Below are positions 1 to 32,000 of a DNA stretch of 32,000 nt, one piece after another. Source of the DNA: Caldimicrobium thiodismutans (lineage in GTDB: Bacteria; Desulfobacterota; Thermodesulfobacteria; Thermodesulfobacteriales; Thermodesulfobacteriaceae); the NCBI RefSeq assembly GCF_001548275.1, contig NZ_AP014945.1, positions 1,410,001 through 1,442,000 on the forward strand, given 5' to 3'. Under the pieces are notes generated by a model. The model worked only from the letters and a program-made list of their open reading frames with translations, was not told the DNA's origin and searched no databases. Each line of letters opens with the position of its first letter. The stretch's first letter is position 1. The translations under genes and the position numbers were made by a program.

Positions 1-17
1 TTGCGGTATCAATTTAT

Positions 18-695: not shown

Positions 696-697
696 AA

Positions 698-1267: not shown

Positions 1268-1269
1268 GT

Positions 1270-3638: not shown

Positions 3639-3778
3639 CTTCTATAATAGTATAATTTTAAATTTTCTATTTTCCACCTCAGAAGTTTACTCATAAAAGG
3701 GCTATAAACTTCATCTTTTATTTTAATTTTTTCTTGATACAATATATATAGATTGATTGCGCTTAGAGGGAGGCTTTT

Positions 3779-4180
3779 ATGAATACTAATTTTAGTCCCA
3801 AGGAATTAACAGAAGCTGTAAGAGACATTTTTAGCGGGACCTTAGGGTATGAAATCAAGGAAAAAATTAGTTCTGAGATAATGGAGACCCTTGAGAAAAG
3901 ATTATCTGAACTTATGGAGAAAAAACTGAGATTAAATGAAGAGCGACTGAAGGTGTCAACTCTCCTTGAGAGAATTATTCGTGTGGAAGAGGAATTAAAG
4001 GCTTTAAGGGAGCTTGAAGAAAAGAGATTTGAAAGTTTGATGAGAGAGATGAATGCAAGATTTGAGGCTATGAATGTTAGATTTGAATCCCTTGAAAAGC
4101 GTATGAATTTTATGCAATGGTTGATAACAGCTGGCTTTGCCTTCTTAGGTGTCCTTTTAGCTCGACTCAAATTTTTATAA
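3779..4180 (+). CDS. Tail-anchored coiled-coil protein, short paralog (2 MNxRFEx heptads + C-terminal TM)
   Basis: SD GAGGGAGG lies 6-7 nt upstream of the ATG. Heptad-rich sequence ends in LEKRMNFMQWLITAGFAFLGVLLARLKFL. Homologous over its whole length to ORF 30512..31198. Confidence 0.75.
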   Translation: MNTNFSPKELTEAVRDIFSGTLGYEIKEKISSEIMETLEKRLSELMEKKLRLNEERLKVSTLLERIIRVEEELKALRELEEKRFESLMREMNARFEAMNVRFESLEKRMNFMQWLITAGFAFLGVLLARLKFL

Positions 4181-4298
4181 AGCTCTTCTATCGTTATAAT
4201 TCCTGAATTAAATCCCTTTCTGCATACACAATAATTCTTTACTTTAAAAAACTTATTTAAAATACAAGAGGCTTAAAAGGACTGAATGCAAACCCTTT

Positions 4299-4510
4299 TT
4301 TTGCATAGTTTCAGATCCTTACAAGAAAAAGGGTGGTAAAAGGTGAGAGAGGTGAAAATGTGAGAGGTGAGAGGAGGGGAAGCCCCTTGCGTGCCTGCCC
4401 CGTGTAGGGGTTCAAGATTTTGAACCCCTACATTGATGTAAAAAACACATAACAGGCAAACACATAGATTTTCCAAATGAGGACAAACACATAGGTTTGC
4501 CCCTACAAAA
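4299..4510. repeat. Copy A of a modular ~200-nt intergenic repeat element
   Basis: Shares these blocks with 11212..11401 in the same order and orientation: TTTTGCATA, GGTGGTAAAA(A)GGT, GAGAGGT(G/A)AGAGG purine tract, CTGCCCCGT, and the exact 19-mer ATAACAGGCAAACACATAG followed by GTTTG. Confidence 0.7.
4404..4431. other. Perfect hairpin (12-bp stem, 4-nt loop) inserted in repeat copy A
   Basis: GTAGGGGTTCAA-GATT-TTGAACCCCTAC read directly from the sequence. Absent from copy B. No U-tract follows on either strand. Confidence 0.9.
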
Positions 4511-4644
4511 TACAGGTTCATTTTCCTACAACCGAAGTAGGAGAAAATCTCCTTAAGTCTCAAAAGATATGAACTTATACAGTGCTTTGAAAAAGGAACT
4601 TTTGATTTAAAATTAATACAAAAAACTTTCCAGGGAGGAGAGAG

Positions 4645-6006: not shown

Positions 6007-6008
6007 AA

Positions 6009-6791
6009 ATGGCCCTTCAAAAGGGTGATCTCGTTATACTTCAGAAAGGCTCGAAGAAGTATCTTTTGATTATAAAAGAGGAAATCTTTCATACCCATGC
6101 TGGTTATCTTGACCTTTCTCAAATAGAGGGCAAGGAATATGGAGATTACATCCTTTCCTCTAAAGGAGTGCCCTTTTATATTTTAAAACCCACTATTTTT
6201 GATCTTCTGATGAAAATAAAAAGGCAGACCCAGATTATTTATCCCAAGGACATTGGTTATATCCTTCTTAAATTGGATATAGTTGAGGGGAAGACTGTCC
6301 TTGAATGCGGGTGTGGTTCAGGGGCTCTTACCACAGCTTTAGCCTATTTTGTTGGTAAAACCGGAAGGGTTATATCCTATGAAAAGAAAGAGTCCTTTGT
6401 TGAGATTGCAAGGACAAATCTCAAAAGATTTAATCTTGAGGAAAGAGTTGTATTTAAGCTGAAGGAGGTAGAAGAGGCCTTTGATGAAGAGGAAGAGGTG
6501 GATGCCCTTTTTCTGGATGTGCGGGAACCTGAAAGACTCCTCTTTCCAGCTTATAGGGCCCTTAAAGGAGGACATCCCCTTGGAATATTGGTTCCAACCA
6601 CAAATCAGGTAACTTCGGTCTTAAAGGGTCTTGAGGCTCTCCCTTTTGTAGACATAGAAGTTATTGAGATTTTCCTTAGACCATATAAATTAAATCCTGA
6701 GAGATTTCGGCCCGAGGATCTTATGGTTGCTCACACAGGCTATCTCATCTTTACTAAAAAGGTTAAGGTGAAAGATGGCAATGAAGATTGA
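6009..6791 (+). CDS. trmI: tRNA (adenine-N1)-methyltransferase TrmI/Gcd14 family (SAM-dependent)
   Basis: N-terminal beta domain followed by the SAM motif VLECGCGSGALTTALAYFVG and FLDVREP. 260 aa. Confidence 0.75.
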   Translation: MALQKGDLVILQKGSKKYLLIIKEEIFHTHAGYLDLSQIEGKEYGDYILSSKGVPFYILKPTIFDLLMKIKRQTQIIYPKDIGYILLKLDIVEGKTVLECGCGSGALTTALAYFVGKTGRVISYEKKESFVEIARTNLKRFNLEERVVFKLKEVEEAFDEEEEVDALFLDVREPERLLFPAYRALKGGHPLGILVPTTNQVTSVLKGLEALPFVDIEVIEIFLRPYKLNPERFRPEDLMVAHTGYLIFTKKVKVKDGNED

Positions 6792-7965
6792 GTATCTTGG
6801 AATAAAGTCTTTTCCGAGAGCCCTGGACAGAGGACTCAAGCAAAAAATCTTGAAGGCTTTTGAAATTTTAAATCTTCCTGCAAGGAATTTAACCCTTGTC
6901 TTCACAAATGATGTCGTAATAAGGGATTACAATCTTCAGTTTTTAAAGAGAGATTATCCAACGAATGTAATTTCTTTTAAAGGGGAAATGCCTGGTTATC
7001 TGGGGGATATTATAATCTCTGTTGAGAGGGCAAAGATTGAGGCCAAAACCTATGATCTCCCCCTGGAGGACTATCTTTTAATCCTTGCTCTGCACGGCCT
7101 TCTCCATCTTTTGGACTATGATCATGAGAAGGGTCTTTATAGCCCTTGGCTTATGCTTAAAAATGAAATAAAATTAGCTAAATATTTGTGTGAAAAAAAG
7201 GAAGAGATAGTTAGATTTTTGATGAGGAGGGAATATATGCCAGCCAAACTTGCCGTAAATGTAGATCATGTAGCCACCATTAGAGAAGCAAGAAAGACCT
7301 ATTATCCTGATCCTGTGCATGCAGCAGTTCTTGCTGAGCTTGGAGGGGCTGATGGAATAGTTGTGCACCTTAGGCTTGACAGAAGACATATTAAGGAAAG
7401 AGATGTTAGAATCATAAAAGAAATTATAAAAACCAAGCTTATTCTTGAGATGGCCATAGATAAAGATCTTGTGAAATTTGCAAAGGAGGTTAAACCCTAT
7501 CAGGTGACTCTTGTTCCAGAGAGAGTGGAAGAGGTTACCACTGAAGGAGGGATGGAACTTGAGGGTAGGGTAGAGGAGGTCAAAAAAGTAGTAAAAGAAC
7601 TCAATAAAGCAGGCATCAAGGTCAGTCTTTTTTTAAATCCCGATGAAAAAGCCTTAGAGCTTGGCCAAAAAACAGGGGCCCAAATTGTTGAGCTTCATAC
7701 AGGAATGTATGCTGAGGCTGAAGATGAAGAAAAGAGAATGGTTGAGTTTGAAAGACTTGAACGAGCTGCTCATCTTGCAAAAGACTTAGGATTTATAGTG
7801 CATGCTGGACACGGACTCAATTACGAAAATATAGGGCCAGTTGCAGCTATTCCTGAGATTGAAGAGTTTAGTATCGGCCATAGCATCATTGGAAGAGCTA
7901 TTTTTGTGGGTATGAAAGAGGCTGTTAAAGAAATGAAGAACCTAATTCTTAGGGCAAGAGGTTAA
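6775..7965 (+). CDS. ybeY-pdxJ: Single ORF fusing YbeY (rRNA maturation RNase, aa 1-~150) to PdxJ (pyridoxine 5'-phosphate synthase, aa 155-396)
   Basis: YbeY metal motif HGLLHLLDYDHE. PdxJ motifs LAVNVDHVATIREAR, VHLRLDRRHI, VELHTG and HAGHGLNY. No in-frame stop between them. An internal SD AGGAGGG (7225-7231) precedes ATG 7237. Confidence 0.8.
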   Translation: MAMKIEYLGIKSFPRALDRGLKQKILKAFEILNLPARNLTLVFTNDVVIRDYNLQFLKRDYPTNVISFKGEMPGYLGDIIISVERAKIEAKTYDLPLEDYLLILALHGLLHLLDYDHEKGLYSPWLMLKNEIKLAKYLCEKKEEIVRFLMRREYMPAKLAVNVDHVATIREARKTYYPDPVHAAVLAELGGADGIVVHLRLDRRHIKERDVRIIKEIIKTKLILEMAIDKDLVKFAKEVKPYQVTLVPERVEEVTTEGGMELEGRVEEVKKVVKELNKAGIKVSLFLNPDEKALELGQKTGAQIVELHTGMYAEAEDEEKRMVEFERLERAAHLAKDLGFIVHAGHGLNYENIGPVAAIPEIEEFSIGHSIIGRAIFVGMKEAVKEMKNLILRARG

Positions 7966-7967
7966 GT

Positions 7968-8612
7968 ATGAAAATAGAGACCTTCATTGTTGGTCCCCTT
8001 CAGGTCTGCTGTTATCTCCTTTATGACGAAAATACCAGAGAAGGAGTGGTGATTGATCCAGGAGATAGCGATCCAAGAATTATTAAATCCCTTTCCGAGC
8101 TAAATCTGAAAATTAAATACATCCTTGGAACCCATGGACATCCCGATCATATTTTAGGAGCAAGCTTTTTACGAGAGACCTTAAAAGCACCTTTCCTTTT
8201 GCATAAGGAAGATGATAAATTTTTTCAGGATCCTGAGAACTTTTTTACCTTTAAGGTCTGGGGCTTTCCAGAAAATCCAAGAGCTGATGGTATTTTTGAG
8301 GATGGAGAGATTTTAAGTTTCGGAGACTGTAATCTTAAAGTAATTCATACACCAGGGCACTCACCAGGATCTGTCTGTTTCTATGAGGAGAAAAGGGGGG
8401 TTCTTTTTTCCGGGGATACTCTCTTTGTTGAGGCTATTGGCAGAGCAGATTTACCAGGGGGTTCTTATAAACTCATGATGAAATCAATCAAAGAAAAACT
8501 TTTGATTTTGCCGGATGAAACTGAGGTTTATCCTGGGCACGACTACGGGCCAAGACCAGTGTCAACCATTGGTCATGAAAAAAGATTTAATCCCTTTATA
8601 AATGAGGGTTAG
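7968..8612 (+). CDS. MBL-fold metallo-hydrolase (glyoxalase II-like)
   Basis: GTHGHPDHILG (HxHxDH motif) and HTPGHSPGS. 214 aa. Confidence 0.8.
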   Translation: MKIETFIVGPLQVCCYLLYDENTREGVVIDPGDSDPRIIKSLSELNLKIKYILGTHGHPDHILGASFLRETLKAPFLLHKEDDKFFQDPENFFTFKVWGFPENPRADGIFEDGEILSFGDCNLKVIHTPGHSPGSVCFYEEKRGVLFSGDTLFVEAIGRADLPGGSYKLMMKSIKEKLLILPDETEVYPGHDYGPRPVSTIGHEKRFNPFINEG

Positions 8613-9916
8613 ATCCTTCCAACACCTGAATAGCTAAAACCAAGTTTTTTGACTGTTTCAGGTTCGTAAATATTTCGCATATCAATAAGAACTGGATTTT
8701 TCATAAGTTTTTTAATTTTAGCAAGATCAAGAAACCTGAATTCATTCCACTCCGTAAGAATAACCATAGCATCCGCTGACTTTAAGGCTTCATCAGGGGA
8801 ATTAGCATAATCTATAGAAAGCGTTCCTACGGTTTTTTTAAACTCTTCCATAGCTACAGGGTCATAAACCCGGACTTTGGCTCCCTTTTCCAAAAGGTGG
8901 GGTACAACCACTAAAGCTGGACTTTCCCGGACATCACTGGTATTGGGTTTAAAAGAAAGACCAAGAATGGCTATAGTCTTATTTTTAATCTCTCCCAGAT
9001 AGGACTCAAGCTTTTCAATAACGCGTCTTTTTTGCCTTTCGTTAACCTCGAGCACAGCCTCAAGAATTTTAAAAGGGGAGCTGCTAAGTCTACCCTGATG
9101 AATGAGGGCCTTGACATCCTTGGGGAAACAGGAACCTCCAAACCCAGGCCCGGGATTGAGAAATTTAGGCCCAATTCTTGGATCAAGCCCCATGCCTTGT
9201 GCAACCACCGTTACATCGGCTCCCACCTTTTCACAGAAATTAGCAATTTCATTGATAAAGGAAATTTTGGTAGCCAGAAAGGCATTGGAGGCATATTTAA
9301 TGAGTTCTGCTGTCTCAAGATTAGTAATAATAAAAGGGGTTTCTGCTAGATAAAGGGGGCGATAAATATCCTTTATAATGGCAATGGCATAGGCACTTTC
9401 TCCACCGATAATGACCCTATCGGGATGCATAAAATCCTCAACAGCATTTCCTTCTCTCAAAAATTCTGGATTTGAGATTACATCAATAGCAGAATCTGTT
9501 TTTTTATGTTGATTAATTAGATCCTTAATCCAGCGATTGGTTCCCACAGGCACGGTGCTTTTGGTAACAATAACTTTGTATTCGTCAACTACTTCAGCCA
9601 GTCTCAAGGCTACATCTTTTATCTGGGAAAGATCTGCTGAACCATCTGGAAGGGGTGGAGTGCCAACGCATATAAAGATAACTAAGGAATTTTTAACTGT
9701 TTTGGCAAAATCTGTGGTAAAGAAGAGCCTCTCTGCCTTAAGATTTTTTTTGACCAGATCATCTAAGCCAGGCTCATAAAAGGGAATCTGCCCCTTTTTC
9801 AATCTTTTGATCTTAGATTCATCTATATCCACGCAGGTAACCTTCATACCGAAGTCAGCCAGACCTGCTCCGGTAACAAGCCCAACATAACCTGTGCCTA
9901 TGACTGAAATATGCAT
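8609..9916 (-). CDS. ugd: UDP-glucose 6-dehydrogenase / nucleotide-sugar dehydrogenase
   Basis: N-terminal Rossmann motif ISVIGTGYVGLVTGAGLA. Catalytic GGSCFPKD. 435 aa. Confidence 0.85.
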   Translation of the reverse strand: MHISVIGTGYVGLVTGAGLADFGMKVTCVDIDESKIKRLKKGQIPFYEPGLDDLVKKNLKAERLFFTTDFAKTVKNSLVIFICVGTPPLPDGSADLSQIKDVALRLAEVVDEYKVIVTKSTVPVGTNRWIKDLINQHKKTDSAIDVISNPEFLREGNAVEDFMHPDRVIIGGESAYAIAIIKDIYRPLYLAETPFIITNLETAELIKYASNAFLATKISFINEIANFCEKVGADVTVVAQGMGLDPRIGPKFLNPGPGFGGSCFPKDVKALIHQGRLSSSPFKILEAVLEVNERQKRRVIEKLESYLGEIKNKTIAILGLSFKPNTSDVRESPALVVVPHLLEKGAKVRVYDPVAMEEFKKTVGTLSIDYANSPDEALKSADAMVILTEWNEFRFLDLAKIKKLMKNPVLIDMRNIYEPETVKKLGFSYSGVGRI

Positions 9917-9934
9917 AGAGAAAAAGTAAAGACC

Positions 9935-11026
9935 TTATGAGGTTTTTTTGGTCTTTGCTTCAGCGGTGATCAATTTTTTGGTCTTTTTCTTTGAGATATT
10001 TATCTTTTTATGAGATTGTTGGGCTAAAAGCTTTTTGTTCTTTGTGCTTTTGGAAAGATAGGTCTTATTTTTAGATTGTCTGGCCAGAAGTTTCTTTTTG
10101 GTCTCAACTTTTTTTGATGATTTGTAAAGACTGTTGGGTTTAAAATTTACAGGAATACTCAAATTTACCGTAGTATTTATGATAAGAGGAGAGGCCTTCT
10201 TTGCAAAGACAAGTTCTGCAAAATTAAGGAGTCTTTTGGTATCTTCCCATAGGGCATCTCTATAAGGAGCACCAAGTAAAGAGGTAATAACTAAACGATC
10301 TTTGATCTTGGCAACATTTACAAGACAGTGCTTAGAAAGGCGGGTATATCCTGTTTTCCCACCCAGTATTTCATCCTTTAAGCCATCCTCAAAAAGGAGC
10401 TTGTTTGTATTTTTAACTATGATTGTTCTTCCCTGTGAAGAGGTAATGACCTTGACAGGGAGGTTAATAATTTCCTTGATATGAGGATATTTCAGGGCTT
10501 CATATAATAGAAGGGCAAGTTCATAGGCTGTGGTATATTGATTGGAGGCAGGGAGCCCGGAGGCAGTAACAAAATGGGAATCTTTTAAACCAAGCATTCT
10601 GGCTTTAGCATTCATTAACTCTGCAAAAGCCTCTTCACTACCTGCGGTTGCCTCAGCAAGGGCTACTGCTGCCTGATTGGAAGATTTAATTAACATCAGA
10701 TGTAAAAGGTCATCCACTGTATAGGTTTCTCCTTCATTGAGATGGGGAGGTGAACTTGGAGTATCGTCAGCTTTTTTGGAAATAGTGACCCTTTGTTTTA
10801 GATTAAGCCTGTCCAGAACAACCATAGCCGTTAAGAGTTTGACTGTGCTTGCAGGCGGGATTTTGATATTTGGATTTTTGGCATAAAGAATCTGCCCGGT
10901 AACACCATCTAAAGCCACAGCTGATGTAGAGAGAACATTTTCATAATACTCAGAGATTTCTTCCCCCTTTGCGTGGGAGACTGAGATAAAAAGTATTAAA
11001 AAGAAAAATATTAGAATCTTTTTCAT
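9935..11026 (-). CDS. D-alanyl-D-alanine carboxypeptidase (S11, PBP5/6-like) with Lys-rich C-terminal tail
   Basis: Start moved to Met13 (ATG at 11026), which has SD GGGGGAA and a signal peptide MKKILIFFFLILFISVSHA. SxxK = ASTVKLL, SxN = SSNQ, KTG = KTGYT. Confidence 0.8.
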   Translation of the reverse strand: MKKILIFFFLILFISVSHAKGEEISEYYENVLSTSAVALDGVTGQILYAKNPNIKIPPASTVKLLTAMVVLDRLNLKQRVTISKKADDTPSSPPHLNEGETYTVDDLLHLMLIKSSNQAAVALAEATAGSEEAFAELMNAKARMLGLKDSHFVTASGLPASNQYTTAYELALLLYEALKYPHIKEIINLPVKVITSSQGRTIIVKNTNKLLFEDGLKDEILGGKTGYTRLSKHCLVNVAKIKDRLVITSLLGAPYRDALWEDTKRLLNFAELVFAKKASPLIINTTVNLSIPVNFKPNSLYKSSKKVETKKKLLARQSKNKTYLSKSTKNKKLLAQQSHKKINISKKKTKKLITAEAKTKKTS

Positions 11027-11211
11027 TTTTTTCCCCCTGAGGCATGGAATTGATAACTTCAATTAATATACCAGCAATCTTTGGAAAAGTCAAATAAAAA
11101 AGGGCAAAAAAATAAGAAGAAAATCTATTTTTTCCTTGATATTCCTTACTAAAATTCATTTTTTAAAATTTTTTTTTGAATTTTGTAAAAATCCATTCTT
11201 TCTCACTAACC

Positions 11212-11401
11212 TTTTGCATAAGTTCATACCCTTTCAAAAAAGAAAGGTGGTAAAAAGGTATAAAGGTGAGAGGTAAGAGGTGAGAGGAAGGAAAAAACCC
11301 ACACATGCATTTCATCAACAATGTTGGGGAAGCTTAGTATGTCTGCCCCGTAATGTAAAGGAACAGATAACAGGCAAACACATAGGTTTGTCCTTACCAA
11401 A
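11212..11401. repeat. Copy B of the modular intergenic repeat element
   Basis: Same ordered blocks as 4299..4510. It lacks the 28-nt hairpin and the internal CAAACACATAG duplication of copy A, and carries a different central insert (~11296-11340). Confidence 0.7.
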
Positions 11402-11540
11402 CCAAGAGGTTTAAAAAATTTATACAGGGAAGGCTTTAAAATTTTGGATAAAAGGATAATCCTCTTTATTGGCTAAAAAGGGAGATTTATTACCAAAGAA
11501 GCAGATTTAAGTTGTAAAGATATAGATGCAACCTAACCTC

Positions 11541-11568
11541 TTGTCCATTTTTTTATAGTTTATATAAT
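11541..11568 (+). promoter_or_regulatory. Sigma-70-type promoter directly abutting polX
   Basis: TTGTCC (11541-46), 16-nt spacer, TATAAT (11563-68). The ATG at 11578 is only 9 nt past the -10 box and has no SD. Confidence 0.4.
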
Positions 11569-11577
11569 ACATAGCAT

Positions 11578-13296
11578 ATGAAAAATAAGGAAGTAGCAGA
11601 AATTTTTAGAAAAACTGCCGAGCTTCTTGAGATAAAGGGTGATAATCCTTTTAGGATAAGGGCCTATGAAAGGGCTGCTCAAACCATTGAATCCTTAACC
11701 AAAGATATAGAGGAACTGGCTAAGGAGGGAAGGCTTGAAAATCTGCCGGGTATCGGTGCGGATCTTGCTGGAAAAATTAAGGAGATCTTAAAAACCGGAA
11801 CCCTCAGTCTTTATGAAAACCTTAAAAAGGAGATTCCCCCGGTTTTACTCAATTTTCTTGAGATTCCAAGCCTTGGTCCAAAAAAGGTCAAGGCTATTTA
11901 TGAAAAATACGGGATTATTTCTCTTGATGAACTCGAAAAGGCCTGTCTTCAGCATAAAATTGCTAAATTGCCTGGTTTTGGTTTAAAAACTGAGGAAAAT
12001 ATCTTAAAAGGAATTAAACTAATCAAAGAGAAGACAGGGAGAAGGCCCTTAGGTGAGGTTTTACCTCTGGCAGAAGAGGTTATCGCTTTGATAAAATCCA
12101 GGGCTCCCCTTCTTCAGATTGAGGTTGCAGGAAGTATAAGGCGAAGAAAGGAGACTGTTAAAGACATAGATGTTCTTATTACCTCTACCCACCCCCTTGA
12201 GGTTATGAAGGTGGTATCAAGCCTTCCCCTGGTTGAAGAGGTCCTTGCCTTTGGGGAGACCAAAACGAGTGTTCGCCTAAAAATGGGGATGCAGATGGAT
12301 GTGAGGGTGGTTGAACCTTCCGCCTGGGGTTCTGCTCTTGCTTATTTTACCGGGTCAAAGGCTCATAATATAAGAATAAGAGAACTTGCCTTAGAGAGGG
12401 GCTTAAAAATAAATGAATATGGAGTTTTTCGTGGTGAAGAGAGAATCGCTGGGAAAACTGAGGAGGAGGTCTATGCAATCCTCGGGCTTCCCTTTATTCC
12501 TCCTGAGTTAAGGGAGGATAGAGGGGAAATTGAGGCAGCCCTACAGGGAAGACTCCCCCAACTGGTAAACTACGAAGATATCCAAGGGGATGGACATGTG
12601 CATTCAAAATACAGTGATGGAATGGCAAGTCTTGAAGAAATTATGGCTAAGGCAGAAGCAATGGGGCTTTCCTGGGTTGCTGTCTGTGATCACTCTCAGG
12701 GGCTAAAGGTTGCAGGAGGAGTCCCGGTTGAAGACCTTTTTAAAAAGAAAAAAAGAATTGAAGAACTCAATGCAAGATCCAAAAAAGTTAAACTTGTCTT
12801 TGGAGCAGAAGTAGATATTCTTTCTGATGGCACCCTTGATTATCCTGATGAAGTCTTAAAGGAAATTGATTTTGTTATTGCAGCTATTCATACAGGTTTT
12901 CAGCAGACGGAAAAGCAGATAACCCAAAGAATAGTCTCTGCTTTAAAACATCCCTTAGTGCATGCCCTTTCTCATCCTACCGGGAGAGTAATAGGGGAAA
13001 GGGAGCCTTATGCAGTGAACATGGAAGAGGTGATGAAGACTGCTAAGGAACACGGTAAAGCCCTTGAGATAAATTGCTATTATAAAAGACTTGATCTTAA
13101 TGATATACATGTTAAGGCCTGTGTAGAAATGGGTATTCCTCTTATTATTGGTACTGATGCCCATATAGTGGATCAAATGGAGTATTTAAGGCTTGGGGTT
13201 TCTGTAGCAAGAAGAGGTTGGTGCGAAAAAAAGGATCTTTTAAATACTTTTACTTATGATAAATTTATGGAATGGTTAAGAGGTCTTAGAAAGTAA
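11578..13296 (+). CDS. polX: Family X DNA polymerase with C-terminal PHP phosphoesterase domain (PolX)
   Basis: HhH motifs (LPGIGADLAGKI, LPGFGLKTEENI). Pol-beta palm GSIRRRKETVKDIDVLI. PHP domain GDGHVHSKYSDG...CDHS...GTDAH. 572 aa. Confidence 0.9.
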   Translation: MKNKEVAEIFRKTAELLEIKGDNPFRIRAYERAAQTIESLTKDIEELAKEGRLENLPGIGADLAGKIKEILKTGTLSLYENLKKEIPPVLLNFLEIPSLGPKKVKAIYEKYGIISLDELEKACLQHKIAKLPGFGLKTEENILKGIKLIKEKTGRRPLGEVLPLAEEVIALIKSRAPLLQIEVAGSIRRRKETVKDIDVLITSTHPLEVMKVVSSLPLVEEVLAFGETKTSVRLKMGMQMDVRVVEPSAWGSALAYFTGSKAHNIRIRELALERGLKINEYGVFRGEERIAGKTEEEVYAILGLPFIPPELREDRGEIEAALQGRLPQLVNYEDIQGDGHVHSKYSDGMASLEEIMAKAEAMGLSWVAVCDHSQGLKVAGGVPVEDLFKKKKRIEELNARSKKVKLVFGAEVDILSDGTLDYPDEVLKEIDFVIAAIHTGFQQTEKQITQRIVSALKHPLVHALSHPTGRVIGEREPYAVNMEEVMKTAKEHGKALEINCYYKRLDLNDIHVKACVEMGIPLIIGTDAHIVDQMEYLRLGVSVARRGWCEKKDLLNTFTYDKFMEWLRGLRK

Positions 13297-13297
13297 A

Positions 13298-15775
13298 ATG
13301 TTTTACTTATTACAATTACCCATAAAAAATTTTCTCAAAGACACAGAGATCTTAACTCCCCCCATTGATATAACCCTTAAGGATTTGCTAAAGCTTTTTC
13401 AGAAATATGAAAGAAATTTTGCTGTTTTTATTAAAGACAGCAAACCTGTGGGGATAATTACTGAGCGAGATGTTTTAAAAGCTCTCCATGAAAAATATTC
13501 ATTAGATACTCCTGCTTTTCATTTAGCCAAAAGAGAGCTTTTTAAAATTAAAAGCAAGGATACCCTTTTTAATGCCTTTAATATCATGACTGAGAATTTT
13601 ATTAGAAGACTTATAGTTGTAAATGATAAAGGGGAGTTTGAAGGAGTTATAACTCAGCAGGATCTTATTCTTCACTCTTCAGCTGAACTTTTTAAGGGAG
13701 AAGGGAAAATCCGTGATCTTCTTGAGATGAAGGATAAACTTATTTATGCTGAAGAGTCTGATACTTTAGATATAGCTCTTTCAAAGATGGTCCAGCACAA
13801 TGTGGGATCCCTTCCTATTTTGGATGCCAGCTTAAGACCCATTGGAATAATTACAGAAAAGGATTTTTTAACCCTTGATTCTGATAATTTAAAAACCCCT
13901 CTTAAAGAGGTAGCGCTCAAAAAGGTTTTTACAGTAGGTATAAAAGATCCAATTATAAAAGGGATTGACCTTTTTAAGAAATATAATATCAGACATTTAG
14001 TGGTAGTGGATGATGAGGGAAGAGCTCTCGGGGTTTTATCTCAAAGGGATTTTGTGCAAAGTCTTACCTGCACTTATGCTGATTTTCTTGAAAGCAATCT
14101 CAAACAAGCTAAAAGCTTTATTTCCCTATTACCTGAGATTGTGCTTGAGCTTTCTGAATGTGATAGTGAATGTAGGATTACCTGGATGAACGATTTTGCC
14201 AAGAAAAATCTTGGGGAAAAATATGTAGAAAGAGATATATACACCCTTATTGATTTTGATGATTGGAATAGGGTTTATGGACTCTTAAAAAGAGAAAAAA
14301 TGATATATAAAGAAAAGATAAAGGGACAAGATGGGAAAATTTATGAGGTCACTGGCACTTATCTTGATTTTGGAATAAAAGAAGGCAAAATAAAGCTTTT
14401 TTTAAGAGATATTACCTATGAGTTTATCAAAGAGGAGAATTATCAAAGGGAAATCCGCTTTTTAAAGAGTTTTCTTGATAATTCTCTTGATTATATCTTT
14501 GTCATAGATAAAGATGGAAGAATTCGTTTTGCCAATACTGCCTTTAAAAAGGCACTGGGGTTTTCGGATGAGGAGATTAAAAATAGAACCATTTTTGATA
14601 TTGTAGATTTATCAGAAGAGGATTTGAGAAAAAATATGGAGCTCCTTATTAAAAAGGGAGTAGAAATTAAGGGAAGAAGGTTTTACAGGGATATTAATCA
14701 AAATCTTATTCCTGTTGAGATTAAGGCCAAGGCAGTTATTCTAAATGGAGATTTTTATATCATTATAAATGCCAGGGATATAAAAGAAGGCTTAGAGTAT
14801 GAGAGGGCTCTTCAGGAGCGTTATCTAATCCTTTCGTCCTTTTATGCCTTTGCTAACTCTCTTAATTATGCCAGAACTGAAGAAGAGCTTTTTCAAGTTA
14901 TAGAAAAGTTTTTATTAGAAAAAGTAGATACCTTTCACTATTTTGAAGTTGATAGTCAAACAGAGGAGATAAAAACTACCTACCTTGCGGGGAAAAAGGA
15001 ATACTGGAATGATTGCTTAAGTAGAGAGGCCAAGGAGTGCAGAGTTTATATAACAGGTAAGAGCTTTTTGGGTAAAGATGAGCATTTTTGTTCTCGCTTG
15101 AAAAGGCCTGATCTTCCTCACTTTTGTATTCCTCTTATTTTTGAAGGGCGTGTTCAGGGAGTTTTAACTTTAATAAGAGAAAAACCTTTTACAGAGGAAG
15201 AGCTCAAATTCCTGGAAGATAAGGTTCAGATCTTTAATATTTATTTAAATCAGATGAAATTAATAAAAGAATATAGAGAGCTTTCCATAAGGGACCCACT
15301 CCTGGGGATTTATAACCGGAGATTTCTTATTGAGATGCTTAAAAAGGAGGAGAAAAAGGCCAAAAGAACCGGAAAACCTTTCAGTATCATCCTTGCAGAT
15401 TTAGATCACTTTAAGAAAATAAATGATACTTATGGCCATTTTGTGGGGGATAGAATTTTAAAGGAGTTTTCTGACCTTGTAGGCTCTCTTATAAGAGGTA
15501 TGGATTATTTTGCCAGGTTTGGAGGTGAAGAATTTTTGATAATGCTTCCTGAAATTTCTAAGGATAGTGCAGTCTTAGTGGCAGAAAGGATAAGAAAGGC
15601 TCTTGAGAAGCATGAAATTTTAATTTCAGAAGGCCAAACTATTAAACTAACCGCTTCCTTTGGTGTGGCCGAATATCCTGCAGATGCCCTTAATTACGAA
15701 GGACTTATCAAAAAAGCGGATACAAGGCTTTATCAGGCCAAGGCTGAAGGTAGAAACCGAGTTGTTTTCAAATAA
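13298..15775 (+). CDS. Multidomain diguanylate cyclase: 4x CBS - PAS - GAF-like - GGDEF
   Basis: Repeated CBS signatures (GIITERDVL, GVITQQDL, GIITEKDF, GVLSQRDF). PAS region (SLDYIFVIDKDGRIRFAN). Active site RFGGEEF with the I-site RGMD five residues upstream. 825 aa. Confidence 0.9.
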   Translation: MFYLLQLPIKNFLKDTEILTPPIDITLKDLLKLFQKYERNFAVFIKDSKPVGIITERDVLKALHEKYSLDTPAFHLAKRELFKIKSKDTLFNAFNIMTENFIRRLIVVNDKGEFEGVITQQDLILHSSAELFKGEGKIRDLLEMKDKLIYAEESDTLDIALSKMVQHNVGSLPILDASLRPIGIITEKDFLTLDSDNLKTPLKEVALKKVFTVGIKDPIIKGIDLFKKYNIRHLVVVDDEGRALGVLSQRDFVQSLTCTYADFLESNLKQAKSFISLLPEIVLELSECDSECRITWMNDFAKKNLGEKYVERDIYTLIDFDDWNRVYGLLKREKMIYKEKIKGQDGKIYEVTGTYLDFGIKEGKIKLFLRDITYEFIKEENYQREIRFLKSFLDNSLDYIFVIDKDGRIRFANTAFKKALGFSDEEIKNRTIFDIVDLSEEDLRKNMELLIKKGVEIKGRRFYRDINQNLIPVEIKAKAVILNGDFYIIINARDIKEGLEYERALQERYLILSSFYAFANSLNYARTEEELFQVIEKFLLEKVDTFHYFEVDSQTEEIKTTYLAGKKEYWNDCLSREAKECRVYITGKSFLGKDEHFCSRLKRPDLPHFCIPLIFEGRVQGVLTLIREKPFTEEELKFLEDKVQIFNIYLNQMKLIKEYRELSIRDPLLGIYNRRFLIEMLKKEEKKAKRTGKPFSIILADLDHFKKINDTYGHFVGDRILKEFSDLVGSLIRGMDYFARFGGEEFLIMLPEISKDSAVLVAERIRKALEKHEILISEGQTIKLTASFGVAEYPADALNYEGLIKKADTRLYQAKAEGRNRVVFK

Positions 15776-26818: not shown

Positions 26819-29233
26819 TTATACATCAAGCTCTCTATATTCCAAGGCATGTTCATAGATAAATTCTTTACGGGGCTCCACATTTTCCCCCATAAGCACA
26901 GAGAACATCTCATCTGCCTTTTCTGCATCCTGAATAGTTACCCTTTTAAGGATTCTCTTTTGGGGATCCATGGTGGTTTCCCAGAGTTGCTGAGAGTTCA
27001 TTTCCCCAAGGCCTTTATATCTCTGAATGTAAAGCCCCTTTCTTCCTTCTTCCCGTAAAAAGGTAAGAATTTCCGTTAAGTGGAGGAGAAAGTCAGAAAA
27101 TACTTTTTGGGTCTCCTTTAATTTAATTTCAAGGTCAAGCCCTGCGTAATCTCTCAGAGTATCAAATATTCTTGAGGCCTCTCTATAGTCTTTCTCTAAA
27201 ATTAATTCAGGCCCAATTTTACAAAAGCTATAGGTGTCCCCCTGGGAATAAAGGTAAAATTCAAAGTATTTGGGATTATAGGTGCTACTTTTGACCCTGG
27301 AAATTTTGAAGTTTAAGGCCTTGGCAGATTGAGAAAGTTTTTCAACTACTTCTTCAGACTCAAAATCTGTCAGGGCCTTTATGTTTTCTTTGAGAAGCAG
27401 TAAAACCACCTTGGGGGGATAATTTTTCTTGGTAAGATTGAGGAGATTTTTTTCCAGATGGGACAGATTTTGAAAAAATTTGATAGGCTCTTTGATTTCA
27501 CTGATAGGACTTCCCTCCTTTTTGACTAAAACCTTCAAATCTCCCAGAATTCTTTTAAAAATATATCTATCCAGTTCTTCGTCATTTTTGATATAGGTCT
27601 CTTTTTTTCCTTCGGCTACTCTGTAAAGAGGAGGTTGAGCAATGTAAAGCCAGCCCCTTTCAATAATTTCAGGCATCTGGCGATAGAAAAAAGTCAAAAG
27701 CAGGGTGCGAATATGAGCTCCATCTACATCGGCATCGGTCATAAGGATGATCTTATGATATTTACAGCGATCTGCATTAAAGCTATCAGGGCCAATGCCT
27801 GTTCCAAGGCTTGCAATGAGGCTTTTTATTTCCTCTGAGGCAAGCATCTTTTCAAAATTGGCCTTTTCCACATTAAGGATTTTTCCTCGCAGAGGCAGTA
27901 TAGCCTGAAATTTTCTATCTCTTGCCTGTTTGGCCGAGCCTCCAGCTGAGTCTCCTTCAACTATAAAAAGTTCTCTGTTTTCTGGGGTCCTTTCAGTGCA
28001 GTCAGCCAGTTTACCAGCTGTAAGAAATTCTTCAATCTCACTCTTTTTTCTAACAAGTTCTTTGGCTTTACGGGAGGCCTCTCTGGCCTTAGCAGAAGTA
28101 ATAACCTTTTGAAGAATCTTTTTGGCCTCTCCTGGATTTTCTTCAAAAAATTTAAGGAGTCCTTCATAAACGAGGGATTCAACAAGGGGTTTGACCTCGC
28201 TATTTCCTAATTTCATTTTGGTCTGTCCTTCAAACTGAGGCTCTGGCACTTTCAGGGAGATAACTGCAGTTAGGCCCTCACGAACATCTTCTCCCTCAAC
28301 TTTGATTTTGAATTGCTTAGGGAGTTTTTCTGAGTCAAGATATCTATTTACAGCTTTAGTAAGGGCAGCTCTAAAACCAACCACATGGGTTCCACCTTCT
28401 TTGGTATGAATGTTATTTACATAGCTGTAAATGGTTTCGGTATATCCTGAGTTATATTGAAGGGCAACCTCAACAACAATATTGTCCTTTTCCCCGGAGA
28501 TGGTAATAACTTTATTGTGAAGGGCTTCTTTTTTTTGATTTAGTGCCTTGACAAGTTCTGCAATCCCCCCTTTATAGTGAAACTTTTCAGCATACCCAAT
28601 CCGTTCATCCATGAGGTAAAATTTTACCTGGGGATTTAAATAAGCAAGTTCTTTTATCCTTTTGGAGACAATCTCTAAGTCAAATTCAAGATTACTTCCA
28701 AAGATCTCCGGATCTGGTTTAAAGCAAACCTTGGTTCCGTGCTTTGAGGTCTGACCAATGGTTGTAACTACTCCGTCAGGGACACCTCTTTTGTAACTCT
28801 GAAAGTAAATTTTTCCATCTCTATAGACCTCGGCTTTTAACCATTCGGAAAGGGCATTAACAACAGAAACCCCTACTCCGTGAAGCCCACCTGAAACTTT
28901 GTAGGCCCCGTGGTCAAACTTAGCCCCAGCATGAAGCCTTGTCATAACTATTTCTAAGGCTGAGATACCCTCTTCAGGATGGATATCAACGGGGATCCCT
29001 CTTCCATTGTCCTCTACACAGGCAGACCCATCTTTGTTAAGGCTTACCTTTATTTCTGAAGCATATCCAGCTAAGGCTTCATCAACAGCATTATCAAGCA
29101 CTTCCCAGAGAAGGTGGTGAAACCCATAAATGTCCGTTGAACCTATATACATAGCAGGCCTGACTCTAACTCCTTCAAGGCCTGTTAAAACCTTTATACT
29201 TTCAGCTTCATATCTTTCCATGAAAGACTTCAC
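26819..29233 (-). CDS. gyrB: DNA gyrase subunit B
   Basis: GHKL ATPase motifs (VLDNAVDEA, GLHGVGVSVVNALS). Toprim EGDSAGGSAKQARDR, PLRGKILNVEKA, DADVDGAHIRTLLLTFF. 804 aa. Confidence 0.95.
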   Translation of the reverse strand: MKSFMERYEAESIKVLTGLEGVRVRPAMYIGSTDIYGFHHLLWEVLDNAVDEALAGYASEIKVSLNKDGSACVEDNGRGIPVDIHPEEGISALEIVMTRLHAGAKFDHGAYKVSGGLHGVGVSVVNALSEWLKAEVYRDGKIYFQSYKRGVPDGVVTTIGQTSKHGTKVCFKPDPEIFGSNLEFDLEIVSKRIKELAYLNPQVKFYLMDERIGYAEKFHYKGGIAELVKALNQKKEALHNKVITISGEKDNIVVEVALQYNSGYTETIYSYVNNIHTKEGGTHVVGFRAALTKAVNRYLDSEKLPKQFKIKVEGEDVREGLTAVISLKVPEPQFEGQTKMKLGNSEVKPLVESLVYEGLLKFFEENPGEAKKILQKVITSAKAREASRKAKELVRKKSEIEEFLTAGKLADCTERTPENRELFIVEGDSAGGSAKQARDRKFQAILPLRGKILNVEKANFEKMLASEEIKSLIASLGTGIGPDSFNADRCKYHKIILMTDADVDGAHIRTLLLTFFYRQMPEIIERGWLYIAQPPLYRVAEGKKETYIKNDEELDRYIFKRILGDLKVLVKKEGSPISEIKEPIKFFQNLSHLEKNLLNLTKKNYPPKVVLLLLKENIKALTDFESEEVVEKLSQSAKALNFKISRVKSSTYNPKYFEFYLYSQGDTYSFCKIGPELILEKDYREASRIFDTLRDYAGLDLEIKLKETQKVFSDFLLHLTEILTFLREEGRKGLYIQRYKGLGEMNSQQLWETTMDPQKRILKRVTIQDAEKADEMFSVLMGENVEPRKEFIYEHALEYRELDV

Positions 29234-29256
29234 CCCTTGAAGATTTTTGTTCAGGT

Positions 29257-30378
29257 CTAAATTACCATAGGCATAAGAAGATAAAGGAAACCCTCATCTC
29301 GAAAGCCTGTTATCAGGGCAGGGGATCTCTCATCATTAATTTTTACCTCAACTTCTTCGGACTTCATATTCTCCAAGGCTGAGATAAGATAGACAGCATT
29401 GAAACTTATAGTTAAAGGAGAACCTTCATATTCTGCACTAAGCCTAATCCTTGCTCTGGAGGTATCTCCCTCAGGGGAGGAGATGGTGATTTCGGAAGAA
29501 GTAAGACTTAAGCGGATAGGTTTGAATTTTTCAGAGATTACATTGGAGGCTCTTTTGCAGGCATCCAGAAAGAGTTTTCTATCAATTTTGAGTTTATTTT
29601 GAAAATCCTGGGGTATAACCGCCCTATAATCTGGAAAGGAGCCTTCAATGGTTCTGGTAAAGAAAAAGCCATCGCTAAAAAAGAGCACAACATAGTTATT
29701 AACAAAGCCAAATTTGACTATAAGCTCCTCCTCGGAAAGATCAGCCATCATATCAGCCCCTTTTTTGCTGATGATGAATCCTTCTTTAAGCGAGGAGCTA
29801 TCAAGCCCGAGAACCTCTCTGTCCAAAAGGGCAAGTCTGTGTCCGTCTGAGGCAACAGCCCGAAGAACTCCTTTTTCTCGCATAGGTTCAAGATAGATCC
29901 CTCCCAGGACAAATCTGGCCTCATCCTTTGAGGCTGAAAAGATGGTGCTTCTAATAAGTTCAGTTAGGACCTTTCCAGGAATTTCAAGGAGATTTTCTTC
30001 ATAAAATTCAGGGAGACTTGGAAATTCTTCACTATCCATGACTGAAAGCTCGTAGAGCTCCTTTTCTTCTTCATCTCTTATGATGAGACGAGAGTCCTCT
30101 TTAAGGAGATAGACCTCCTCTTCAGGAAAGTCTTTAATTATTTCAAGGAATCTTCGGCAGGGGACGCAAAAGGAGAGCCTTTCTCCTTCAATATCTGCAG
30201 GCACTCTTCCTCTGAAACCCTGTTCAAGGTCAGTTGTAGTGATATAGAGGGTTTTTTCTTCTGGTTCAAAGTTGAGAAGAGCCATTGAGAGAACAGCCAT
30301 GGAGGCCTTTTTATCAGCTACTCCATCTGCCCTTTTTAGAAGCTTTTCAAGGTGCGATTTGTCAAGTTTAGCCTGCAT
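29257..30378 (-). CDS. dnaN: DNA polymerase III beta sliding clamp
   Basis: 373 aa, three-domain length. Typical N-terminus (...L...L......VA.K....VL) and C-terminal LLMPM. Lies immediately upstream of gyrB. Confidence 0.85.
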   Translation of the reverse strand: MQAKLDKSHLEKLLKRADGVADKKASMAVLSMALLNFEPEEKTLYITTTDLEQGFRGRVPADIEGERLSFCVPCRRFLEIIKDFPEEEVYLLKEDSRLIIRDEEEKELYELSVMDSEEFPSLPEFYEENLLEIPGKVLTELIRSTIFSASKDEARFVLGGIYLEPMREKGVLRAVASDGHRLALLDREVLGLDSSSLKEGFIISKKGADMMADLSEEELIVKFGFVNNYVVLFFSDGFFFTRTIEGSFPDYRAVIPQDFQNKLKIDRKLFLDACKRASNVISEKFKPIRLSLTSSEITISSPEGDTSRARIRLSAEYEGSPLTISFNAVYLISALENMKSEEVEVKINDERSPALITGFRDEGFLYLLMPMVI

Positions 30379-30511
30379 AGGAGCCCCCTTGCGTGAAAAT
30401 TTTTATATATTATAGCACAATCCCCTTTTTTGTCACCCTTTTTAGGGATTTTGCCCTTTATTTTTTGAATTTTTTGAATATAATAAAAAGAAAACATGCG
30501 GAGGAAGATAA

Positions 30512-31198
30512 ATGCAAGGCCCTAACCTTAGCTCTGAAGAGCTGAATGAGGCAATTAAAGGGGTTTTTCGGAGTAGTTTTGGGGAGGAATTCAAAGAAAG
30601 TATTAGCGCTGAGATATGGGCAAAACTTGAGGAAAAGTTTCTTGAATTTATGGAAAATAGGCTAAAGATAAGTGTTGAGCGACAAAAGGAGTTAACTCTT
30701 CTTGAGAGAATTGTTCGTGTGGAAGAGGAATTGAAGGCTTTAAGGGAGCTTGAAGAAAAGAGATTTGAAAGTTTGATGAGAGAGATGAATGCAAGATTTG
30801 AGGCTATGAATGAAAGGTTTGAGGCCTCACAGAAGGAGATGAACACCCGCTTTGAGGCTACGAATGCCAGATTTGAGGCTTTACAGAAGGATATGAACAC
30901 TCGCTTTGAGGCTTTACAGAAAGAAATGAATACTCGCTTTGAAGCTATGAATGCCAGATTTGAGGCTTTACAAATAGACATGAACACCCGCTTTGAGGCT
31001 ATGAATGCTAGATTTGAGGCTTTGCAGAGGGATATGAACAGCCGCTTTGAGGCTCTGCAGAAGGAGATGAATGCCCGCTTTGAGGCTATGAATGCCAGAT
31101 TTGAGGCTTTAGAAAAGCGGATGAATTTTATGCAATGGCTGATCACAGGGGGCTTTGCCTTCTTGGGGGTGCTTTTAGCCCTTCTTAAGTTTCTTTAA
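30512..31198 (+). CDS. Tail-anchored coiled-coil protein, long paralog (12 MNxRFEA heptads with six 4-residue inserts + C-terminal TM)
   Basis: SD GGAGGAAG upstream. The N-terminal 90 aa are homologous to ORF 3779..4180. Same C-terminal LEKRMNFMQWLITGGFAFLGVLLALLKFL. Confidence 0.8.
   Translation: MQGPNLSSEELNEAIKGVFRSSFGEEFKESISAEIWAKLEEKFLEFMENRLKISVERQKELTLLERIVRVEEELKALRELEEKRFESLMREMNARFEAMNERFEASQKEMNTRFEATNARFEALQKDMNTRFEALQKEMNTRFEAMNARFEALQIDMNTRFEAMNARFEALQRDMNSRFEALQKEMNARFEAMNARFEALEKRMNFMQWLITGGFAFLGVLLALLKFL
30785..31108 (+). repeat. In-frame tandem coding repeat (21-nt heptad units, 33/54-nt higher-order units)
   Basis: ATGAAyrCyCGCTTTGAGGCT-type units are visible directly and encode MNxRFEA x12, separated by SQKE/LQKD/LQKE/LQID/LQRD/LQKE. 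Confidence 0.9.
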
Positions 31199-31338: not shown

Positions 31339-32000
31339 ATGGAAAGGGTTACCCTTAAAGTTGAGGGAATGACTTGTGTAAATTGTGCTAAGGCTATTGA
31401 GATCTCCTTACAAAAACTTAAAGGTGTAAAAAGGGTTGAGGTCTCTTTTGAACTTGGAAGGGTCTCTGTGGATTTTGAAGAGGAGTTTTTAAGTCTTGAA
31501 GAAATAAAGAAAGTTATTGAAGACCTTGGATATAAAGTAGCTTCTGGTGTCAAAAAGAAGGACTATCAAAGGGAAATCCTTGGCTTTTCCTTTCTAGCAA
31601 GTCTGGCAATTATGGGGCTCATGTTTTATCATCATCCCGTTAGCCTCTTTCTTCAGGCTTTACTCAGTATCTCTATTCAAATTATTGGTGGTTACAGATT
31701 TTATAAAGGGGCTTATGCAAGCCTTCGGGCAGGGATTGGGAACATGGATGTCCTTGTTGCCCTTGGAACCACATCAGCCCTTATTTATAGTCTTCTTGCC
31801 GTATTTAAGTTCCTTCCAGGGGAGCCCTTTTTTGAGACCAATGCTTTTCTCATTGCCTTTGTGAGGCTTGGAAAATACATTGAAGAGCGATCAAGAACCC
31901 GGGCCCTGAATCTTCTCAAAGAGCTTTTTGCTATACAAACCGCAAAGGTTATAATCTTAACCCCTGATGGAGAAAAAGAGGTATCTGTGAGTGAGGTTCT
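31339..32000 (+). CDS. copA: Heavy-metal (Cu+/Ag+-type) translocating P-type ATPase, N-terminal part (runs off the window)
   Basis: My own translation: MERVTLKVEGMTCVNCAKAIE... This is an HMA domain with GMTCxxC, followed by TM helices (GNMDVLVALGTTSALIYS). No stop before nt 32000. Confidence 0.85.
   Translation, partial: MERVTLKVEGMTCVNCAKAIEISLQKLKGVKRVEVSFELGRVSVDFEEEFLSLEEIKKVIEDLGYKVASGVKKKDYQREILGFSFLASLAIMGLMFYHHPVSLFLQALLSISIQIIGGYRFYKGAYASLRAGIGNMDVLVALGTTSALIYSLLAVFKFLPGEPFFETNAFLIAFVRLGKYIEERSRTRALNLLKELFAIQTAKVIILTPDGEKEVSVSEV

Follow-up and report, generated by a model that had tools for sequence, protein, structure and literature searches.

What kind of protein is built almost entirely from tandem repeats of 7 and 11 residues, and what might set the number of those repeats? 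The question is raised by a 228-amino-acid (aa) protein encoded near one end of a 32,000-nucleotide (nt) stretch of the Caldimicrobium thiodismutans chromosome (contig NZ_AP014945.1, positions 1,410,001 to 1,442,000), which is referred to here as the window and which also carries a shorter, 133-aa paralog. The reading we prefer, to which we give a probability of about 0.6, is that of a membrane-tethered, modular coiled-coil stalk, probably trimeric, with a length that evolves by gain and loss of units. Residues ~25 to 208 would form one uninterrupted alpha-helix, the helices of several copies, most likely three, would assemble in parallel as a nearly straight coiled coil, and the last 19 residues would span the cytoplasmic membrane, leaving the stalk on the cytoplasmic side. 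The repeats, RFEAMNx heptads and RFEALQKEMNx hendecads, would put Phe, Leu/Met, and Met on one narrow stripe and, mixed at about 1:1, would give ~3.6 residues per turn. Stalk length would shift by in-frame gain or loss of 21-, 33-, and 54-nt units via recombination or slippage, with the paralogs exchanging sequence, and the protein would serve as a length-setting stalk or as a scaffold for whatever its tip binds.

Parsing of the long protein places 13 RFE[AS] anchors at residues 84 to 196, with spacings of 11, 7, 11, 7, 11, 11, 7, 11, 7, 11, 11, and 7. An earlier reading of this DNA, made by a model from the letters alone (the sequence-only reading), had counted 12 MNxRFEA copies with six 4-residue inserts. 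This count stands, as there are 11 exact copies, one TNARFEA, and the six inserts SQKE, LQKD, LQKE, LQID, LQRD, and LQKE. Directly C-terminal of the array is LEKRMNFMQW, followed by the hydrophobic LITGGFAFLGVLLALLKFL. At the DNA level, Tandem Repeats Finder detects periods that are nested in one another, at 21, 33, 54, 87, and 141 nt, over positions 30781 to 31125, with the best score (488) at 141 nt, and the repeat structure is far beyond chance. The 141-nt period is a higher-order unit (47 aa = 11+7+11+7+11) that recurs in the long gene at 80% DNA identity. Units that follow a hendecad open with the Arg codon CGC in 6 of 7 cases, and units that follow a heptad open with AGA or AGG in 5 of 5. 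As the choice of codon depends on the preceding unit, the array expanded via duplication of composite 54- to 141-nt blocks, not of single units.

The open reading frame (ORF) is a real gene and a member of an unnamed, fairly large, and conserved family. A word-seeded search recovers 775 proteins at E≤1e-3 (best, 4.8e-52), while an exhaustive phmmer search of 1.84 billion 50%-identity representatives, with the short paralog as the query, recovers 566 at E≤1e-3, of which 87 reach E≤1e-10; relatives are encoded at 318 loci of species-representative genomes. These are found in Thermodesulfobacteriota, Anaerolineales, Omnitrophota, Aminicenantes, Magnetococcales, and spirochaetes, as well as in Caldithrix, Poribacteria, Hydrothermota, and one Helarchaeota bin, and the best tblastn matches are to Caldimicrobium metagenome-assembled genomes, at up to 70% identity. 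The genes are multi-copy: two lie in the window, Caldimicrobium sp. SKYB6 has at least seven loci, and a Magnetococcales bin has a tandem row of three. Many of the family matches are located at contig ends.

The family plan begins with a variable N-terminal stretch of 40 to 60 residues. Next comes L-x-ER-[IV][VI]-R-V-EEEL-K-x-L-R-E, which is almost invariant, and then [RK]F[ED]A units in varying number, RFEA[LM][ED][KR]R...QW as the closing element, and a hydrophobic C terminus. In the family alignment, Q208 is invariant, and E65, R66, R69, E71 to E73, L74, L77, and W209 are nearly so, whereas residues 1 to 60, the tip, are the least conserved region (pLDDT, the predicted local distance difference test score, ~70). 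We define the family by four features, namely ER[IVL][VIL]R[VL]EEEL[KR], [RK]F[ED]A units at 7/11 spacing, RFExh[ED][KR]R...QW, and a C-terminal hydrophobic segment, and both window proteins carry all four. No Pfam or NCBIfam model reaches its cut-off for either of them, in keeping with the remark in the sequence-only reading that the family was not recognized; it is not a characterized one. The labels prefoldin, RmuC, exonuclease VII, FtsX, and ElaB/YqjD that some members bear in their sources are automatic names.

Relatives that depart from this plan are informative. In P0033 and P0216, the RFEA repeats are followed by a C-terminal domain, which in P0033 weakly matches PDDEXK_10. In P0193, P0224, P0262, P0263, and P0273, an N-terminal signal peptide or membrane segment precedes the stalk, which is followed by a membrane segment and a C-terminal tail. 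As it occurs both fused to PD-(D/E)XK-like domains and behind signal peptides, the RFEA stalk is a reusable module. We also note that the tail of these five proteins is conserved over ~70 aa (...PEMRxMMQxAxL).

AlphaFold2 monomer prediction, run with a 35-sequence family alignment, yields a short helix (residues 8 to 22) and then one unbroken helix from residue 25 to 227, with a mean pLDDT of 90.5. A 19-residue Kyte-Doolittle scan (KD19) finds a single hydrophobic segment in the long protein, at residues 210 to 228 (KD19 of 2.18). Within the N-terminal 60 residues the value never rises above -0.01, which argues that there is no signal peptide. Both the tail-anchored helical rod and the combination of LEKRMNFMQW, a 19-residue C-terminal anchor, and a signal-less N terminus had been put forward in the sequence-only reading, and the model and the hydropathy scan agree with them. 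Residues 1 to 208 carry a net charge of -7, and only ~3 residues extend past the membrane span, which is also the median for the family. A hydrophobic segment at the C terminus and none at the N terminus is the pattern in 367 of 422 distinct members, and Lys plus Arg average 2.27 per 12 residues before the span versus 1.23 after it. At 0.15 nm per residue, the pre-anchor helix would measure ~27 nm in the long protein and ~13 nm in the 133-aa paralog and, because the anchor spans the membrane, the variable tip would be held at these distances from the inner membrane face.

Plotted on a 100-degree helical wheel, the 18-residue composite unit has Phe, Met, and Leu inside an arc of 20 to 100 degrees, with Arg on one flank, Asn/Gln on the other, and Glu opposite the apolar stripe. 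Such a narrow Phe/Met/Leu stripe is the look of a coiled-coil core, and together with the spacings it upholds the heptad/hendecad periodicity with Phe and Met at core positions that had been proposed from the letters. The long protein has 112 residues in 31 turns (3.613 residues per turn), and across the family the per-protein periodicity is 3.597 ± 0.025, with 716 heptad versus 652 hendecad spacings. An unstrained helix has 3.6 residues per turn, and with values this close to it a nearly straight bundle is expected; we claim no fine tuning within individual proteins, as the spread is about that of a random 1:1 mix. With regard to oligomer state, the sequence RIVRVE (residues 66 to 71) fits Arg(g)-h(a)-x-x-h(d)-Glu(e), a motif for trimerization. 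The R-hxxhE motif is described as a determinant of parallel coiled coils with three strands, although some dimers and some antiparallel trimers are exceptions (PMC3653964). It lies at most 30 residues ahead of the first RFE in 311 of the 422 members, and in 355 of them the array ends with RFExh[ED], a variant that has Phe at position a. The conservation of R-hxxhE at the stalk base and the Phe-at-a variant at the end of the array favor, and suggest, a parallel trimer.

Variation in repeat number is seen among relatives. P0002 (200 aa), P0013 (182 aa), and P0014 (171 aa) share one locus, which has a FixI-type P-type ATPase with FixS on one side and murB-murC on the other, and the alleles are found on six contigs from independent samples. 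Their flanks are at least 99.9% identical over 1500 nt upstream and at least 99.7% identical over 300 nt downstream, and a single 54-nt and a single 33-nt indel, both clean and inside perfect repeats, are all that separates the three. In addition, the 90%-identity clusters at P0006, P0016, and P0049 contain proteins of 160, 164, 171, 185, 189, 192, 203, and 210 aa, which differ by whole heptads or hendecads.

Exchange between the two window copies is indicated as well. By BLASTP, identity between the two proteins is 63% in the N-terminal part and 86% in the C-terminal part. The short paralog does have only two heptads, as the sequence-only reading said, but its flanks are not identical to those of the long one. 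At the DNA level, identity is 53 to 73% over positions 30521 to 30700, rises to 97 to 100% over 30701 to 30790, and is 75 to 87% at the 3' end. As the shared tract is bounded and identical at synonymous sites too, gene conversion is indicated, and the stalk-base tract looks like the product of a recent event of this kind; the idea that recombination acts on these genes, raised from the letters, is thereby supported. The 81-aa protein P0145 from the representative library is 94% identical to residues 46 to 133 of the short paralog, minus exactly one heptad (AMNVRFE), and ends in LLALLKFL, as the long paralog does. It represents a shorter allele or else a hybrid, in a close relative. Together with the P0002/P0013/P0014 alleles, it provides the in-frame unit indels among very close relatives that length variation by recombination had led the sequence-only reading to expect, and repeat number among relatives is thus polymorphic, not invariant.

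The exact sequence of the short paralog is present on an NCBI contig. Another contig, Ga0401068_000372 from JGI 3300038964 (70,987 nt), is 99% identical to window positions 1 to 14212. By coordinate arithmetic, its end is expected ~95 nt into the long gene, just before the tract shared by the paralogs; an end at the repeat would likely be a typical assembly break.

Several points weigh against a cytoplasmic, trimeric, length-variable stalk. The topology draws on two things, the missing signal peptide and a modest charge bias, and some relatives clearly place an RFEA stalk outside the cell. The repeat units themselves have Phe at position a and Gln or Asn at position e, so they are not canonical trimer motifs. 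The lengths of the alleles were read from metagenome assemblies of short reads, in which repeats can be collapsed; however, the perfect arrays are shorter than the k=141 used, and each allele length recurs in separate samples. In the long gene, the repeats are only ~80% identical at the DNA level, so the array is not obviously hypermutable, and the word-seeded, metagenome, and protein-collection searches yield no close ortholog of it. For both reasons, length variation is demonstrated for relatives and not for this locus. With the N-terminal part of the long protein, the metagenome scan gives at most 56% identity over that part, and values of up to 78% are confined to the conserved stalk-base segment; the protein collection has no exact copy of the long protein. 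Nor was a strain-level ortholog of the long gene found by exact look-ups with dnaN, a 174-aa neighbor, and the short paralog, which came back empty, or with the HxlR-like neighbor, which returned short contigs only. Finally, when two neighbors per side were clustered for 180 family genes in 166 loci, no recurrent partner emerged; the gene appears to stand alone, and its context therefore gives no functional lead. The spacer or ruler proposed in the sequence-only reading is thus a hypothesis.

Among known proteins, the closest analogue is Bdr, the KID-repeat protein of Borrelia, which the window protein resembles in appearance and probably in manner of working, while by current definitions it is not a member. 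The sequence-only reading had missed this likeness, as it had the multi-copy nature of the family and the conserved trimerization-type motif at the base of the stalk. Bdr has been known for more than 25 years as a Borrelia-specific, multi-copy, inner-membrane family, and its repeat number varies. A tblastn search of 72,556 plasmids matches 55 records, all from Borrelia/Borreliella, and the matches listed fall nearly all under bdr/Bdr genes, with a few under hypothetical or otherwise-named genes. The Bdr of B31 lp56 reads ...KIDNVEKNLNTKIDNVEKNLNLKIDNLDSKIDTVEKNLNT... and then enters a C-terminal hydrophobic segment. Like the window proteins, it is small and has central 11-residue units mixed with 7-residue ones (KIDNVEKNLNT and KIDNLDS), and BLASTP aligns KIDNVEKNLNT in register with RFEALQKDMNT through to the anchor (55.8 bits). 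The C-terminal hydrophobic anchor and multi-copy paralogs that mark Bdr proteins are found with the window proteins too. A hidden Markov model (HMM) of our family gives Bdr B31 25.1 bits (shuffled maximum, 5.4; reversed, 3.7), and a protein from lp23 of Borrelia sp. RT1S 66.1 bits (shuffled maximum, 7.2; reversed, 7.5). This RT1S protein (locus L167, 1345 to 1917, annotated as hypothetical) contains MNAKFEAV and MNIRFEAV units, KID-like KINNLEKNI units, and a C-terminal anchor, and may connect the RFEA repeats with those of Bdr. Its gene adjoins a RepL replication gene. Adjacency to replication genes is a trait of bdr genes, and Bdr proteins are inner-membrane associated, with a function that is not known (PMC10016077).

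In contrast, the repeat fragments of the window proteins have no match to PF02524 (KID) at E≤10, whereas for Bdr the scores are 38.8 bits with a control fragment and 69.9 bits at full length. The Bdr N-terminal model NF040500, which gives the Bdr B31 control 91.5 bits, and its siblings are absent from the complete 14 hits of the short paralog and from the 25 best hits of the long protein. Instead, the window family has its own N terminus with the stalk-base motif ERIVRVEEELKALRE. The genetic setting differs as well: the window gene is chromosomal with housekeeping neighbors and belongs to a free-living bacterium, whereas Bdr is encoded on linear or circular Borrelia plasmids or prophage near replication or mlp loci.

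A second likeness is to the DUF1640/CCDC90-like proteins (PF07798), comprising MCUR1, CCDC90B, yeast Put6/Put7, and prokaryotic members, which likewise combine a coiled-coil stalk with a single C-terminal membrane segment. In mitochondria, their stalk faces the matrix, the side equivalent to the cytoplasm (PMC7519068). The resemblance consists of weak profile similarity across stalk and anchor: PF07798 matches the long protein with 15.4 bits (E=0.018), below its gathering cut-off of 33.5 bits, and is absent from the complete list of 16 Pfam hits of the short paralog, while P0085 (25.4 bits) and P0118 have weak matches that span most of the profile. The mark of the DUF1640 type is an N-terminal head with a beta-layer neck, [aliphatic]-A-T-K-[polar]-[DE] (PMC4786415). 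Neither window protein has an A-T-K motif, the predicted helix is unbroken and without head or neck, and the window protein is built from a variable number of tandem 7/11 units. As to the homotrimeric assembly of DUF1640/CCDC90-like proteins, the conserved R-hxxhE motif is suggestive of a counterpart in the window family. The sequence-only reading had been reminded of DUF1640/CCDC90 by the layout and had found the N terminus different; the likeness is real, if weak, and the different N terminus comes down to the missing head and neck.

Other similarities are more distant. DUF3782-type stalks of PD-(D/E)XK endonucleases (PMC4786415) are likewise a reusable stalk module, as in the C-terminal domain proteins P0033 and P0216; however, the window protein ends in a membrane anchor, has no PD-(D/E)XK domain, and has no DUF3782 among its listed Pfam hits. 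ElaB/YqjD (DUF883) and YgiM-type TIGR04211 proteins share an N-terminal cytoplasmic helical part and a C-terminal anchor. TIGR04211 weakly matches stalk and anchor (27.1 and 25.5 bits; cut-off, 65 bits), and one relative is labeled ElaB/YqjD by JGI, yet the window proteins lack an SH3 domain and a listed DUF883 match, and ElaB/YqjD-type proteins lack the repeat array. A Pfam match to HSBP1 was dismissed as sub-threshold (33 bits over three stretches). Profile searches of the PDB returned influenza HA2, ApoA-I, and, weakly, 6h9l, none of which survived trimming of the repeats from the profile. HA2 was the top PDB match to the family profile (E=0.003 to 0.08), its helical stem region matching residues 90 to 205 of the long protein; this similarity most likely reflects chance or convergence. 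Foldseek with the single-helix model gave no match.

How much of this reflects common descent? The window protein may be a divergent member of one superfamily with Bdr and/or the DUF1640/CCDC90-like proteins (MCUR1), sharing an inner-membrane scaffold role. This proposal is compatible with the stalk reading, to which it adds ancestry, and we hold it to be possible, with the odds against it. The Borrelia-restricted plasmid matches, the in-register alignment to the Bdr anchor, and HMM scores over the shuffled and reversed controls all point toward it, as does the RT1S protein, with its mixed units and its replication gene neighbor. Yet PF02524 fails on the window repeats, the Bdr_N model is not among the hits of the window proteins, and periodic coiled coils can resemble each other by convergence. 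On the DUF1640 side, the near-full-profile matches in P0085 and P0118 are offset by the sub-threshold score of the long protein, the missing match in the short one, and the absence of both head domain and A-T-K beta-layer neck; PDB 6h9l reaches only E=0.025 and is gone from the listed matches once the repeats are trimmed. More tentatively still, the RFEA-repeat, Bdr/KID, and DUF1640/MCUR1 proteins could all descend from one ancient stalk, tail-anchored, trimeric, and almost straight (18/5-periodic), and so form a single superfamily. Stalk lengths would be purposely tuned by gain and loss of 7/11 units, and paralogs of unequal length within a cell (13 and 27 nm) would position different partners at set distances beneath the membrane.

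A helix rich in 11-mers could instead be an amphipathic lipid-surface binder, comparable to apolipoproteins, perilipins, or LEA proteins, that has one end anchored and rests flat against the membrane, for example to stabilize it at high temperature. The long protein does have a weak Apolipoprotein A1/A4/E match, but at 28.3 bits it is far under the 90-bit cut-off; ApoA-I chains are the top PDB matches for P0085, many family members come from thermophiles, and Arg at the edge of the apolar face with Glu opposite recalls class A amphipathic helices. We consider such a binder unlikely, because the apolar stripe is narrow and coiled-coil-like (5 strongly hydrophobic residues per 18 within ~80 degrees), heptads are as common as hendecads, the R-hxxhE motif is conserved, and the RFEA stalk also precedes soluble nuclease-like domains. 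A periplasmic, N-out rod acting as an envelope spacer is very unlikely for the window protein, which, like 367 of 422 relatives, lacks an N-terminal hydrophobic segment; an acidic stretch of ~200 residues (net charge, -7) would need signal-less export, and the charge bias favors N-in. That the stalk can work outside the cytoplasm is nevertheless clear from the relatives with an N-terminal signal peptide or membrane segment. We give almost no credence to a non-functional locus, be it a repeat-generated ORF or a decaying paralog. The absence of the exact protein from the protein collection and an antisense ORF of similar length would fit it, but the gene has a good Shine-Dalgarno sequence and ATG start, there are hundreds of homologs with conserved non-repeat motifs and anchor, and the units keep their amino acid motif despite ~20% DNA divergence.

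A membrane-tethered coiled-coil stalk is in itself a known kind of protein, as Bdr and DUF1640 illustrate. The RFEA family, its breadth, and the link to Bdr were not found in the searchable literature, where the motif strings of the family occur in no paper, and we regard the novelty as moderate. Widespread Bdr look-alikes in free-living bacteria would offer comparative material and genetically simpler systems for the study of stalk function. The family also provides a natural series of single-helix rods of ~3 to 17 units with balanced 7/11 periodicity, of use for coiled-coil rules and for thermostable spacers. Since these genes break short-read assemblies and carry wrong database names, a family model would clean up their annotation.

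Table 1. Features of the two paralogs and of the overlapping antisense frame, in window coordinates
Feature	Position	Strand	Basis or remark
Long paralog, 228-aa tail-anchored repeat protein	30512..31198	+	Stop codon included; ORF, family homologs, AlphaFold2 helix
Shine-Dalgarno sequence GGAGG	30500..30504	+	7 nt 5' of ATG; visible in the sequence itself
Variable N-terminal tip, residues 1-60	30512..30691	+	Helix 8-22 and beginning of the long helix
Stalk-base motif LLERIVRVEEELKALRE, residues 63-79	30698..30748	+	Includes RIVRVE at 30707-30724
Repeat array, residues 84-203	30761..31120	+	13 RFE[AS] anchors; 5 heptads, 7 hendecads; terminal RFEALEKR
W209 and C-terminal hydrophobic anchor LITGGFAFLGVLLALLKFL	31136..31195	+	KD19 maximum 2.18 at residues 210-228
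Probable gene-conversion tract, ~110 nt at the stalk base	30692..30810	+	97-100% DNA identity to ~3956-4074 of the short paralog
Short paralog, 133 aa, same architecture	3779..4180	+	3 RFE anchors = 2 MNxRFE copies
Antisense ORF, 234 aa	30442..31146	-	By-product of stop-free repeats, not a gene

The antisense ORF is set aside as the gene because family homology, the Shine-Dalgarno sequence, and the start codon are all on the plus strand; equivalent antisense ORFs in related loci form the largest "neighbor" clusters. The long gene is divergent from dnaN (29257..30378, minus strand), and a copA-like P-type ATPase gene with an HMA domain begins at ~31340 on the plus strand, 140 nt downstream (window positions 31340 to 32000). 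The polymorphic relative represented by P0002, P0013, and P0014 also adjoins a heavy-metal P-type ATPase, of FixI type, but on the opposite side, and the clustering of neighbors does not support a general association with such ATPases. An 804-aa ORF upstream is probably gyrB, as assigned from position and size, so that window positions 26819 to 30511 hold dnaN and probable gyrB without an adjacent dnaA. No DnaA-box cluster is present in the 133-nt spacer upstream of dnaN, and window-wide the boxes are at chance level (8 versus 7.7 expected). Next to the short gene, in divergent orientation, is the gene for a sigma-54-type response regulator. No phage matches and no Rfam family were found in the window, and a PADLOC scan returned only sub-threshold coiled-coil noise, including ZorA tails. 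Two PHROGs, to which no function is assigned, match the end of the stalk and the anchor at E ~2e-10.

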